64,000 nucleotides of DNA. It comes from a virus. Lineage: Duplodnaviria; Heunggongvirae; Uroviricota; Caudoviricetes. The position numbers were made by a program. The number at the start of each line of letters is the position of its first letter. Position 1 is the first letter of the stretch. The stretch lies in IMG/VR virus record IMGVR_UViG_648028025_000010; one strand, written 5' to 3'. This document shows positions 9,001 through 15,000 of the stretch, one piece after another.

Positions 9001-12000
9001 GTACACTGAAAATTCAACAGGAAAAATCAGCCCGGTCATTGCTGCCATTCATCGCGAATACAAGCAGACATGGAAAACACTGGATGACGAACTGGCCTAC
9101 GCTCTCTGGCCTGGTGATGTGGATGCCGGAAACATTGACGGCAGCATCCATCGCTGGGCAAAAAAAGAAGTTATCGACAACGACCGCGAAGACTGGAAGC
9201 GTATCTCGGCATCAATGCGCAAACAGCCTGATGCCCTTCGCTACGACCGCCAAACTATTTTTGGCCTTGTCCGTGAGCGTCCGATCGACATTCACAAAGA
9301 TCCCGTAGCACTGAACAAATATATCTGCGAATACCTGACGACAAAGGGCGTGTTTGAGAATGAAGAAACAGACCTGGGCACTGTTGATGTTCTCCAGTCA
9401 TCAGAAACACAAACTGATGCAGTGGAAACTGAGGTATCTGATATCCCAAAAAATGAAACCGCGCCGGAAGCTGAACCATCTGTAGAGCGTGAGGGGCCGT
9501 TCTATTTCCTCTTCGCAGATAAGGACGGAGAAAAATACGGTCGCGCAAACAAACTTTCTGGTCTGGATAAGGCACTGGCTGCTGGCGCCACTGAAATCAC
9601 AAAAGAAGAATATTTTGCCCGAAAAAATGGCACATACACGGGCTTACCGCAAAATGTAGATACCGCTGAAGATTCAGAACAACCAGAGCCGATAAAAGTT
9701 ACCGCTGACGAAGTAAACAAAATTATGCAGGCAGCCAATATCAGCCAGCCTGACGCCGATAAGTTGCTTGCTGCATCACGTGGTGAATTTGTTGAAGGGA
9801 TTAGTGACCCGAATGATCCGAAATGGGTTAAGGGGATCCAGACCCGCGATTCTGTGAACCAGAACCAGCATGAATCGGAACGGAACTACCAAAAAGCGGA
9901 ACAAAACAGTCCAAATGCGTTACAAAACGAGCCAGAAACGAAACAGCCTGAACCAGTGGCGCAACAGGAAGTGGAAAAAGCCTGCACCGCCTGCGGTCAG
10001 ACCGGCGGCGGCAACTGCCCTGATTGTGGCGCGGTGATGGGCGACGCAACATACCAAGAAACATTCGATGAAGAGTATCAGGTTGAAGTTCAGGAAGATG
10101 ATCCGGAGGAAATGGAAGGCGCTGAACATCCACACAAGGAGAACACTGGCGGCAATCAGCATCACAATAGCGATAATGAAACTGGCGAGACGGCAGATCA
10201 CCCAATTAAGGTGAACGGTCATCACGAAATCACATCCACCAGCAGGACGTGTGACCATCTAATGATCGACCTTGAAACCATGGGAAAAAATCCTGATGCC
10301 CCGATCATCTCAATAGGTGCAATATTTTTCGATCCGCAAACCGGAGATATGGGACCGGAATTTAGTAAGACTATCGATCTGGAAACTGCTGGCGGAGTCA
10401 TTGATCGGGACACCATTAAATGGTGGCTTAAGCAATCACGCGAAGCGCAATCTGCCATTATGACCGATGAAATCCCGTTAGATGATGCACTGTTACAATT
10501 GCGGGAATTTATCGACGAAAACTCCGGTGAATTTTTTGTTCAGGTCTGGGGAAATGGAGCCAACTTCGACAACACGATTTTGCGCCGTTCATACGAACGG
10601 CAGGGGATCCCCTGCCCGTGGCGTTACTACAACGATCGCGATGTACGCACAATCGTTGAGCTGGGGAAAGCCATAGACTTCGATGCCAGAACGGCTATTC
10701 CATTCGAAGGTGAGCGCCATAATGCACTTGATGACGCCCGTTACCAGGCAAAATACGTTTCAGTTATCTGGCAAAAACTGATCCCGAGTCAGGCTGATTC
10801 TTAATGTTCAACTGTCGCCGGTTGTGACTGGTATTCTGCAACCGGCGCTCGTCTGATGTAAGAGATAAAGAAATCGATGAGCGAAGTAATCATGATTGTC
10901 TCTCCCGGCAAATGGGTATCCGAAGAGCAGTTAATTGCGCTGAAAGGAATAAAAAAAGGTACGTTAAAAGTAAGCGACTCGTCAGAACCGTATTGATATT
11001 TACTGAGAGCTCAGATCAACTTTCCAGGGCAACAGATCGCGTACCCGGTTTGCCGGCCAGTCCTGGATATGTTCAATGACGTAACGCAGCCACTTTTCTG
11101 GCTCCACATTGTTCAGACGGCATGTGCCGATCAGCGAGTACAACACCGCCGCATGTTCACCACCGCTGTCGGAACCCGCGAACATCCAGTTTTTCCGGCC
11201 TACGGCCACTCCCCGTAAGGCGTTCTCTGCGATGTTGTTGTCGATTTCCACCCAGCCATTACTGCAGTACACGTTCAGTGCATCCCACTGTTTCAGCAGG
11301 TATGCGAACGCTTTTGCCGTATCTGAGTGACGCGACAGTGTTTTCATCTGTTGCTGTATCCAGTCATACAGTGACTGCATCAGTGGCGCGGCTCTGGCTT
11401 TTCTTGCCGCCAGACGCTGTTCTGCTGAACAGCCCCGGACCTCTGCCTCGATGGCATACAGTTCACCGATACGCTGCAGGGCTTCCGTGGTGATGTAGGT
11501 GGGCGCTCTTGCATGCACATCGTGGATTTTTCTCCGGGCATGAGCCATACACGCGGCTTCCGTTATTCTGCCGGATTCGTATAACGCCCGGTAACCACCG
11601 TAAGCATCGGCCTGAAGCACACCGCTGTAACCGGCCAGGTGATTTTGTGGATGGATACCTTTCCGGTCCGGACTGTACGCGAACCAGACCGCCGGGGGCA
11701 TCTGTGAACCGGCGTTACGGTCATCACGGACGTAGACCCACAGCCGGGCTGTCCGGGTTTTACCGCTGCCCGGCTCCTGGACCGGGACGGGGATATCATC
11801 AGCATGGACTTTACCGGGCATCAGCACATACTGGCGCAGGACGTCATACAGCGGCTCCAGCAGTTCAGCAACAGCACCTGTCCAGCGCCCCAGTGTGGCA
11901 CGGCTCAGCTCCACTCCCTGACGACGGTATATTTCTGACTGGCGGTATAACGGCAGATGGTCTGCATATTTCCCGGTGACAACATGGGCCAGAAGCCCCG

Positions 12001-15000
12001 CTCCGGCATAACTGCGTGCAATGGGTTTTGAAGGTACTGGTGCCTGCACGATATGGTCGCACCGGCAACAGGCCTGTTTCGGACGTTGTGTTTCGATAAC
12101 CTTAAAGGCGCTGCTGATAAGCTCCAGTTGCTCTGACACATCACATCCCAGAGAACTGAGTTCACCACCACAGGCAGGACAGCATTCCTCTTCCGGCCGG
12201 ATAACCCGGGTTTCACGGGGAAGTGAGGCCGGTAACGGTTTACGGGCTGAAGACTGGCGCAGGGCGGATGGCAGTACCGGGTCATATTGCTCACCCAGCG
12301 TTTCCGCCATTTCTTCCTGAAGTGCGCTGATTCGCTCCTGTGCTTCCTGTATCTGCCGTTCGGTTTTTGCACGAAGTTTTTCTGAGCTTTTACCGAACTG
12401 CATACGTTGCAGTTTCGCAACCAGCGCCTTCAGCCGGTTGATTTCGGAAGCATAAGCCGCCACCCGCTGTGAGAGCAGGCGGTTGTATTCAGCCATCTGG
12501 CGGATGGTGTCCTGTTGCGTCTGCAACAGTGCCCGCAGGCGGGCGTTCTCATGAGCAAGTGAGGTGTCCATATCCTCACTTTACAACGGGTTATATGCGG
12601 ATTCCAGCGCGTTCCGTTCGTTTCGGGTGCTTCCAGTTGATACCTTCAAGAAGCATGGATAACTGAGCCGGAGTAAGGTGCACCTTGCCGTCACGGGTGA
12701 CTGGCCAGACGAAGCGGCCCCGCTCCAGGCGTTTGGTGAAGAGGCACAGTCCGTCACTGTCAGCCCACAACACTTTTATCTGGTCACCCCGGCGTCCGCG
12801 GAAGATGAACAGGTGTCCGGAGAACGGGTCATCCTTCAGGACGTTCTGAACTTTTGATGCCAGGCCGTTAAAGCCATTTCGCATATCGGTGATACCTGCA
12901 ACCAGCCAGATACGCGAACCTGCAGGGAGAGATATCATCAGTGGCTGCTCCCTTTTATTTCGCGGATAAGTGTCTGTAATAACGCCGGCGTCAGTTTACC
13001 TTTAAGCCTGAGAGTTCCGGCCGGCAGAACCAGCTCACAACACAGACTGTCGGACGGTGTATTTATCTGCTCTGGTTCCTGTGCGGGGGCCGGGATTTTA
13101 TTATCCGGCTCCGGCGTTAACGTCACGGGAAGCAGTGCCGGCATATTTTTTCCGGAAGGCAGCAGGCCACCTTTCCGGTATTGATGGCGCCAGTTGAAGA
13201 GCAGGTTATCGTTGATTCCGTTTTCCCGGGCGATCTGCGCCACACAGGCTCCGGGCTGCAGTGACTGCTCCACTAAGGCGATTTTAAACTCATAAGGGAA
13301 GTTGGGCCGCCGGGGACGTTTTTTTACCACGGGGGCTTCGGATATAACGGTGCTTTCAGGACGTACGACTGGTACCGTGGAAAATTGTCCGTAAAGGCAG
13401 GCATCAAGTTCCTGCTCCGACATGCCTGCGGGCAAAGGCCACGAAAGGCCAGCTCTCCGAAAGCGCACGAACATACTACAAACTGTTGATTTTGGTACAC
13501 CCAGGCGACGCCCGGCCACAACCCGGGGTAAATGTTCTTCAAAGTGAAGACGTAAAGCTTCAGTGATCCAGGTCCGGTGTTTCATACGATAGTGTCCATT
13601 AAAAATGATGGACATTATTTTTGTAGAGCCGGAGGAAACAGACCAGACGGTTTAAATGAGCCGGTTACCGTTAAAAAAGGCCCGGGAAAAATCGTTTATG
13701 GAAGGAAGGGAATATAAGCATGTCGCTCATGACGGTATGCCATGGGATAACAGTCCATGCTTTTATAACCTGGAAGAAATTGATCGCTGGATTGAGCGCC
13801 AGGCATCAGCGAGACCAAGACGTCATCTTACTTGACTAAAAGCCACACTAACTAATGAGAGAAGTTGAAATGAAATATCCGACAGGCGTGGAAAACCATG
13901 GAGGGAAATTACGTATCTGGTTTGTTTATAAAGGCGTAAGAGTCAGGGAAAATCTGGGGGTTCCTGACACATCAAAAAACAGGCGCGTTGCAGGTGAACT
14001 ACGCTCCTCTGTTTGTTACGCAATAAAAACTGGTGTTTTCGACTATGCAAAACAGTTTCCCTCCTCACGCAATCTGGAAAAATTTGGTGAGGCCCGACAA
14101 GATTTAACCATAAAAGAACTGGCTGAAAAATTTTTGGCACTGAAAGAAACTGAAGTCGCCAAAACATCACTCAACACATACCGTGCCGTCATCAAAAATA
14201 TCCTGAGCATAATCGGTGAAAAAAATCTTGCCTCATCGATTAATAAAGAAAAATTACTGGAGGTTCGTAAAGAGCTACTGACTGGATACCAGATCCCCAA
14301 AAGTAACTATATTGTTACACAACCAGGGAGATCGGCTGTAACTGTAAATAATTACATGACAAATCTTAACGCCGTGTTCCAGTTTGGTGTTGATAACGGT
14401 TACCTGGCAGATAATCCGTTTAAGGGGATCTCGCCATTAAAGGAATCAAGAACCATTCCGGATCCTCTTTCGCGGGAGGAATTTATCCGTCTTATCGATG
14501 CGTGCAGAAATCAGCAAGCAAAAAATTTATGGTGTGTTTCTGTTTATACTGGCGTTCGCCCTGGTGAGCTGTGTGCACTTGGATGGGAGGACATAGATCT
14601 GAAAAATGGAACAATGATGATCAGGAGAAATTTAGCAAAAGACCGTTTCACGGTACCAAAAACACAGGCGGGAACCAATCGGGTCATTCATCTTATTAAG
14701 CCAGCAATCGACGCTCTCCGGAGTCAGATGACATTAACGAGACTGAGCAAAGAGCATATCATTGATGTTCACCTCAGAGAGTATGGCAGAACAGAAAAAC
14801 AAAAATGCACCTTTGTTTTTCAACCTGAAGTGTCAGCGAGAGTAAAAAATTATGGTGACCATTTTACCGTTGACTCAATAAGGCAGATGAGGTGTACTGG
14901 CAATAGCGGACACTACCATTTGTTCTTTTTTTAAGCAGCCATCTGATGATATTTTTCCCTGAAGGCTGCCGGGGAGATATTCCCCAGACGAGAGTGACGA

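Follow-up and report, generated by a model that had tools for sequence, protein, structure and literature searches.

An IS66-family insertion sequence in the excisionase-like gene of a Qin-like prophage of Escherichia coli O26/O111

The interrupted excisionase locus

The window analysed in this study, that is, the whole 64,000-nucleotide stretch of the IMG/VR virus record IMGVR_UViG_648028025_000010 (Caudoviricetes), carries two tandem prophages, A and B, and the excisionase-like gene (xis) of prophage A is split by a 2699-bp insertion sequence (IS) with three minus-strand genes (Table 1). The element lies between two exact copies of the 8-bp direct repeat CGTTAAAA, which cannot be extended, as the outer bases are A and C on the left and G and A on the right. 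Identical 8-mers around an arbitrary 2699-bp segment occurred at only 7 of 61285 window positions (approximately 1e-4 per position), so chance is not a credible origin of the CGTTAAAA pair. The segment between the repeats begins with GTAAGCG, and its opposite end, when reverse-complemented, begins with GTAACCG. The two ends, GTAAGCGACTCG at the left and GTAACCGGCTCA read from the other end, agree at 18 of their first 26 bases and form an imperfect terminal inverted repeat, and the same two arms were also paired by a repeat search of the window. The G+C content was 55.2% in the element vs. 46.5% in its flanks.

The target with only one repeat copy, the 18-mer GGTACGTTAAAAAAGGCC, occurred once in the window (62515-62532), within the paralogous xis of prophage B, while none was expected from shuffled sequences. 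A first-pass annotation of the window had proposed a clean 8-bp duplication, a 2699-bp element starting with GTAAGCG and an uninterrupted target in the paralogous xis near 62516; the duplication and the unique target were both found as proposed, and the extent of the element was confirmed to the base.

All three genes of the element are intact. In addition to the DDE domain given in Table 1, TnpC carries the Pfam domains PF13005, PF13007, and PF13817 (zf-IS66, LZ_Tnp_IS66, and DDE_Tnp_IS66_C). The stop codon of tnpA and the start codon of tnpB share 1 nt (TGATG), and tnpC starts 19 nt past the tnpB stop with GAGGA ahead of its start codon. The element thus combines a DDE transposase TnpC, an adjacent upstream tnpB, and a first-in-operon helix-turn-helix tnpA coupled to tnpB with imperfect inverted repeats of the form 5'-GTAA(G/C)CG and an 8-bp duplication, and by these sequence features it is an IS66-family insertion sequence. 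The earlier assignment to this family, together with the tnpA, tnpB and tnpC reading frames on the minus strand, was borne out by the match of all three to IS66-specific Pfam families. The HTH_Tnp_1 match of TnpA covers residues 102-159 only, and about 100 N-terminal residues are without Pfam assignment. The Rfam scan of the whole window gave no match inside the IS or xis.

In the interrupted xis, the frame runs through codon 31 into eight codons of the IS and then meets a stop, and RefSeq annotates the split gene as two pseudogene fragments, of which the 5' part is called 'xisR, missing C-terminus'. When the element and one repeat copy were removed, the two fragments joined into an intact 252-nt open reading frame (ORF) of 83 amino acids, whose product matched the putative excisionase family PF06806 at residues 5-73 (E = 1.6e-31). 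The alignment of the two xis copies, which the first-pass annotation had named as a check, showed that the restored gene differs from its prophage-B counterpart by 4 nt and 1 amino acid; over the restored insertion site as a whole, 4 of 300 bases differed from the paralogous site. The gene is flanked on one side by that of an 823-amino-acid exonuclease, and directly downstream by a tyrosine integrase gene (int; Arm-DNA-bind_2 and Phage_integrase domains). As a small PF06806 protein encoded directly upstream of a tyrosine integrase, the product of the interrupted gene would be a phage excisionase, a function that is putative.

Table 1. Features of the interrupted locus and of the surrounding prophages (window positions unless a retrieved locus is named)
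Feature	Position	Strand	Basis or detail
ISCro1-type insertion sequence, complete, IS66 family, 2699 bp	10970..13668	- (genes)	Full-length identity to RefSeq-labelled copies
Left target-site duplication copy, 8 bp, CGTTAAAA	10962..10969	.	Read from sequence
Right target-site duplication copy, 8 bp, CGTTAAAA	13669..13676	.	Read from sequence
Terminal inverted repeat, tnpC-proximal, GTAAGCGACTCGTCAGAACCGTATTG	10970..10995	.	18/26 match; also in diverged Citrobacter copy
Terminal inverted repeat, tnpA-proximal, reverse complement GTAACCGGCTCATTTAAACCGTCTGG	13643..13668	.	18/26 match; also in Citrobacter copy
tnpC, 523-aa DDE transposase	11000..12571	-	PF03050 DDE_Tnp_IS66, 1-283 of 284 profile positions, E = 2.5e-103
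tnpB, 115-aa IS66 Orf2-like accessory protein	12591..12938	-	PF05717 TnpB_IS66, E = 4.7e-40
tnpA, 225-aa accessory protein, HTH_Tnp_1	12938..13615	-	PF01527, E = 8.6e-15; RefSeq 'IS66-like element accessory protein TnpA'
Prophage-A excisionase 5' fragment, codons 1-31	10877..10969	+	Translation MSEVIMIVSPGKWVSEEQLIALKGIKKGTLK, then VSDSSEPY*
Prophage-A excisionase 3' fragment, codons 32-83 and stop	13677..13835	+	Rejoined ORF intact
Uninterrupted paralogous excisionase, tandem prophage B	62434..62685	+	Single CGTTAAAA at 62519-62526
IS600 (IS3 family), 1264 bp, splitting int of prophage A	14888-16151		Duplication AGA at 14885-14887 and 16152-16154
int A fragments	13870-14887; 16155-16417		IS600 between
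att core ATGACTCTTGAAATCCATAA, junction of prophages A and B	16446-16465		20 bp
Further ATGACTCTTGAAATCCATAA positions in retrieved loci	L003 28161-28180; L001 16510-16529		
Incomplete IS1202-like ISEsa1 transposase gene	2724-3794	-	RM8426 annotation
nleC, type III effector gene	17208-18194	-	Tail-fibre end of prophage B
DicF small RNA, two copies	7637-7688; 59207-59258	+	One per prophage, upstream of dicB
Rfam matches on the minus strand	52554-52728; 53437-53521; 53547-53621; 46736-46905; 48278-48524	-	

Identity of the element and its copies elsewhere

The element was 100% identical over its full length to many E. coli copies that RefSeq calls ISCro1 family. Its TnpC, TnpB, and TnpA correspond to WP_000381395.1, WP_000624622.1, and WP_001339397.1, which bear that label ('IS66-like element ISCro1 family transposase', tnpB, and tnpA). 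In a megablast search that lists one place per record, the element was matched in 3017 of the 5426 complete E. coli genomes; the best place was at least 99% identical in 1792 E. coli records, and matches of at least 99% were found in 975 plasmid records. The element is frequent on plasmids of Escherichia, Shigella, Salmonella, Klebsiella, and Citrobacter.

Strain E2865 carries the identical 2699-bp sequence at two unrelated sites, one on a plasmid with CTCCCTGT on both sides and one on the chromosome, within an S49 peptidase gene, with ACATAAAA on both sides. A more diverged copy of 2698 bp in Citrobacter sp. ANG330 (94.8% DNA identity; 97% between the TnpC proteins) has the same terminal sequences and is flanked by the duplication CCGTAATA. 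As the same element lies at other sites between other 8-bp duplications, its ends are independently confirmed. Such identical copies with duplications of their own, along with the presence/absence polymorphism of the xis site described below, are indirect indications that the element transposes. A search of genome contigs for a Citrobacter rodentium copy returned none, the nearest being that of Citrobacter sp. ANG330.

ISCro1 was named in C. rodentium, in which it has expanded more than any other IS (PMC3072379). One ISCro1 insertion described in the literature measures 2699 bp with an 8-bp duplication (PMC12115866). An 'ISCro1' in strain EC958 is given as 2,824 bp (PMC8764528), unlike the copy in the window. 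The name used here thus rests on the RefSeq labels and the published length and duplication rather than on the ISfinder reference, while the family assignment is independent of it.

Two further observations concern the element outside the xis locus. TnpC sequences of 75-100% identity were present on very short contigs assigned to a Clostridiales metagenome-assembled genome, Thauera, Streptococcus sanguinis, Acinetobacter idrijaensis, and Bacillus; the Clostridiales contig SFGJ01000083.1 is exactly 2699 bp long and 99.96% identical to the IS in the window, and these contigs most likely reflect E. coli contamination or misbinning rather than a real host range. In strain RM6927 (NZ_CP074742.1), the 5' and 3' halves of xis are about 490 kb apart on opposite strands, at approximately 3.125 Mb and 2.634 Mb. 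Each half adjoins one side of an ISCro1 copy (retrieved loci L048, 4801-7499, and L049, 2101-4799) that has a prophage tail-fibre gene on its other side, and the flanking 8-mers of the two copies are swapped (CGTTAAAA/TGTCATTC and TGTCATTC/CGTTAAAA). This pattern is the signature of a ~490-kb inversion by recombination between the two ISCro1 copies.

The occupied site among E. coli genomes and its prophage context

Among the complete E. coli genomes, the left junction of the IS with xis was found in 65, a number that includes at least two two-piece matches that are not the xis junction, and the right junction in 61. The uninterrupted site was present, at a query coverage of at least 80%, in 2512 genomes. 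The carriers include strains named O26 and O26:H11 and the O111:H8 strain 7-15 45A. In the four that were inspected (E2865, RM8426, 7-15 45A, and 2013C-3250), the insertion lies at the same locus adjoining rspB, and RefSeq annotates the same split xisR with ISCro1-family genes in O26 RM8426, E2865, and O111:H8 7-15 45A. An orthologous empty site at rspB was found in O111 strain RM9322 (positions 4289-4306 of the retrieved locus), with no difference from occupied O111 strains over 1830 nt of flank; since the empty site stands on identical flanks, the xis site is polymorphic.

The insertion had previously been described as probably recent. This holds in so far as the element is undecayed, with a perfect duplication, an intact restored ORF, and 100% identity to many copies, but the insertion is not private to one strain, being common to about 61-65 of the 5426 complete genomes (O26 and O111:H8). 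It may therefore be called young as it is undecayed, and yet it has passed through the O26/O111 group by inheritance or exchange.

The window is collinear with the chromosome of E. coli O26 strain RM8426 and almost identical to it, apart from scattered substitutions followed by an indel near 58859. Prophage A, which adjoins rspB, is lambdoid and Qin-like (rem, hokD, relBE, flxA, dicB, DicF, and ydfD), and its head and tail genes are present as a full set upstream of the window. Prophage B, which extends from about 16.5 kb to 64 kb and carries nleC as well as an exo-xis-int module of its own, is a tandem integrant next to A and beside rspB. The 20-bp attachment (att) core ATGACTCTTGAAATCCATAA is present at the junction of A and B in the window, at the junction of B and the chromosome in RM8426, and at the junction of A and the chromosome in E2865, which carries A but no B at the rspB-side position. 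Its presence at all three junctions indicates that B used the att site of A, and the same tandem arrangement was reported experimentally for Sp10 and Rac (PMC2669165).

The int gene of prophage A is itself split, by an IS600. Without the IS600, it is an intact ORF of 426 amino acids, 95.3% identical to Int B. The IS600 lesion is far younger than the insertion in xis, because its junction with int is fully common to only three complete genomes, RM8426, 2012C-4606, and 12689. Another sign that prophage A is decaying is the incomplete ISEsa1 transposase gene in its replication/regulation region. As to other features, nleC stands just past the junction of A and B, and the Rfam matches above the gathering score comprise, besides DicF, sok antitoxin RNA, C4 antisense RNA, isrK, and STnc100; three tRNAs in prophage B were also detected with Rfam, for which the RM8426 annotation gives Arg, Arg, and Ile.

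Consequences of the insertion, alternatives, and related systems

We consider it almost certain that a complete ISCro1 has transposed into the prophage-A xis between codons 31 and 32, that Xis is truncated as a result, and that the allele is shared within the O26/O111 group. ISCro1 entered the 83-codon xis of a Qin-like lambdoid prophage with duplication of its 8-bp target CGTTAAAA, leaving Xis with 31 native residues and setting 2.7 kb of opposing DNA between the early-region genes and int. Prophage A should thereby lose its own excision directionality factor, because the 31 N-terminal residues that are left of a 69-residue domain would not be able to act as one. The first-pass annotation had proposed that the excision functions of prophage A are inactivated, which is a reasonable inference for Xis A itself. 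Read-through transcription into int is probably reduced as well, since 2.7 kb of opposing genes would impede transcripts coming from the early operon. A promoter scan of 10700-14000 found no sigma-70-like site at the IS end for outward expression of int, a result that is neutral either way. The insertion is not new to the strain of the window, having spread in the O26/O111 group by descent or exchange.

No observation contradicts the identity of the element or the insertion itself, and the points that weigh against this account concern the predicted effect on excision. The loss of xis is not the sole lesion, as int A is independently broken by IS600; prophage B could supply in trans an Xis that differs by 1 amino acid and an Int that is 95.3% identical, with the same 20-bp att core; and O157 prophages that lack a functional Xis have been shown to excise by means of Int only (PMC2669165).

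Accordingly, the interruption of xis may have been functionally neutral, in that prophage A was already fixed and defective and that its excision would proceed via Int and Xis of prophage B or via Int alone. This is a possibility to be taken seriously, though we hold it to be unlikely. The ISEsa1 remnant and the IS600 in int are in keeping with it, as are the intact and near-identical xis and int of prophage B with the same att core, and tandem integration at the attR of a resident prophage has been reported together with excision in the absence of functional Xis (PMC2669165). However, most carriers, for example E2865 and O111 strain 7-15 45A, have an intact int A and no B before rspB, and in such carriers xis is the only visible lesion of the excision module; moreover, prophage A retains its full upstream set of head and tail genes.

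The single origin of the shared allele was also weighed against two independent insertions, one in O26 and the other in an O111:H8 sublineage, which would have hit an identical base with identical orientation and would make CGTTAAAA in xis a preferred target of ISCro1. The occupied O26 allele differs from the O111 alleles at 8 flank positions, all to the right of the IS, while the occupied and empty O111 alleles are identical over 1830 nt; the IS copies of O26 and O111 differ at 1-2 of 2699 bases, and those of O111 have A in place of G at position 534, a single-nucleotide polymorphism that the O26 copy lacks. These differences would fit separate events, but position, orientation, and duplication are all identical, and the O26 and O111 flanks, which diverge farther out, are identical from 424 nt left to 90 nt right of the IS, a pattern that a shared or recombined tract would explain just as well. 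Further, the other duplications, CTCCCTGT, ACATAAAA, CCGTAATA, and TGTCATTC, show no obvious common target motif, and a search that was not exhaustive saw no insertion at this site of xis at another chromosomal locus. Two insertions are less probable than a single one with later recombination or loss.

Still more doubtful is the idea that the interruption of xis is no neutral accident, but has recurred or been kept by selection and holds the Qin-like prophage, together with its relBE, hokD, dicB/DicF, and cold-shock genes, fast in the chromosomes of O26/O111 enterohaemorrhagic E. coli (EHEC); if true, it would need an ISCro1 hot spot at the xis codon or spread of the allele by inter-lineage recombination. 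Finally, that the CGTTAAAA repeats are coincidental and that recombination, not simple transposition, produced the segment as an island has virtually no likelihood, as nothing beyond the short length of the repeat favours it, whereas the chance of such a pair is about 1e-4 per position, the target is single-copy both in the paralogue and in the orthologous empty site, the same element ends occur elsewhere with different 8-bp duplications, and the recombined copy in RM6927 has swapped, non-matching 8-mers, unlike the copy in the window; the duplications at other sites and the orthologous empty site refute it.

The insertion of ISCro1 into the prophage-A xis is an ordinary finding, as the IS and its family are known and the insertion position already figures in the annotation of dozens of public genomes. 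Its relevance beyond correct annotation is small, and lies in a textbook-clean case of prophage decay through an IS in genomes of the EHEC type. Occupancy of the site could mark O26/O111 lineages, and the ~490-kb inversion via the same IS copy illustrates how such insertions reshape chromosomes.

Compared with ISCro1, which was first named in C. rodentium ICC168 and is widespread on Enterobacteriaceae chromosomes and plasmids, the element has the same length, duplication, and protein labels, and no difference was detected; given the 94.8% DNA identity to the Citrobacter copy, the E. coli element may represent an isoform of the original from C. rodentium. The family prototypes IS679 and IS66, as reportedly described by Han et al. 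in 2001, have closely coupled ORFs in the order tnpA-tnpB-tnpC, imperfect repeats starting with GTAA, and an 8-bp duplication. The element in the window agrees with them in gene layout, in its imperfect GTAA-starting repeats, and in its 8-bp duplication, which is also the length given elsewhere for IS66 (PMC6778807). Unlike IS679 and IS66, however, it is a distinct element with a long tnpA (225 amino acids), in which about 100 extra residues precede HTH_Tnp_1, and IS679 and ISCro1 are treated as separate ISs in C. rodentium (PMC3072379). ISEc8, an IS66-family element common in EHEC O157, shares the family and the host group, but its identity is only about 71% over approximately 870 nt of tnpC, which makes it a distinct member.

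With regard to the prophage, the closest parallel is EHEC O157 Sakai, in which the Int/Xis modules of Sp3, Sp11, and Sp12 (int) and of Sp4 and Sp14 (xis) are likewise damaged by IS disruption (PMC2669165). Unlike those cases, the lesion in the window is a clean ISCro1 in xis of a Qin-like prophage at the rspB-side site in O26/O111, and its effect on excision is predicted from sequence. In O157 Sakai as in the window, the lambdoid prophage belongs to a pool of near-identical prophages that are able to interact.

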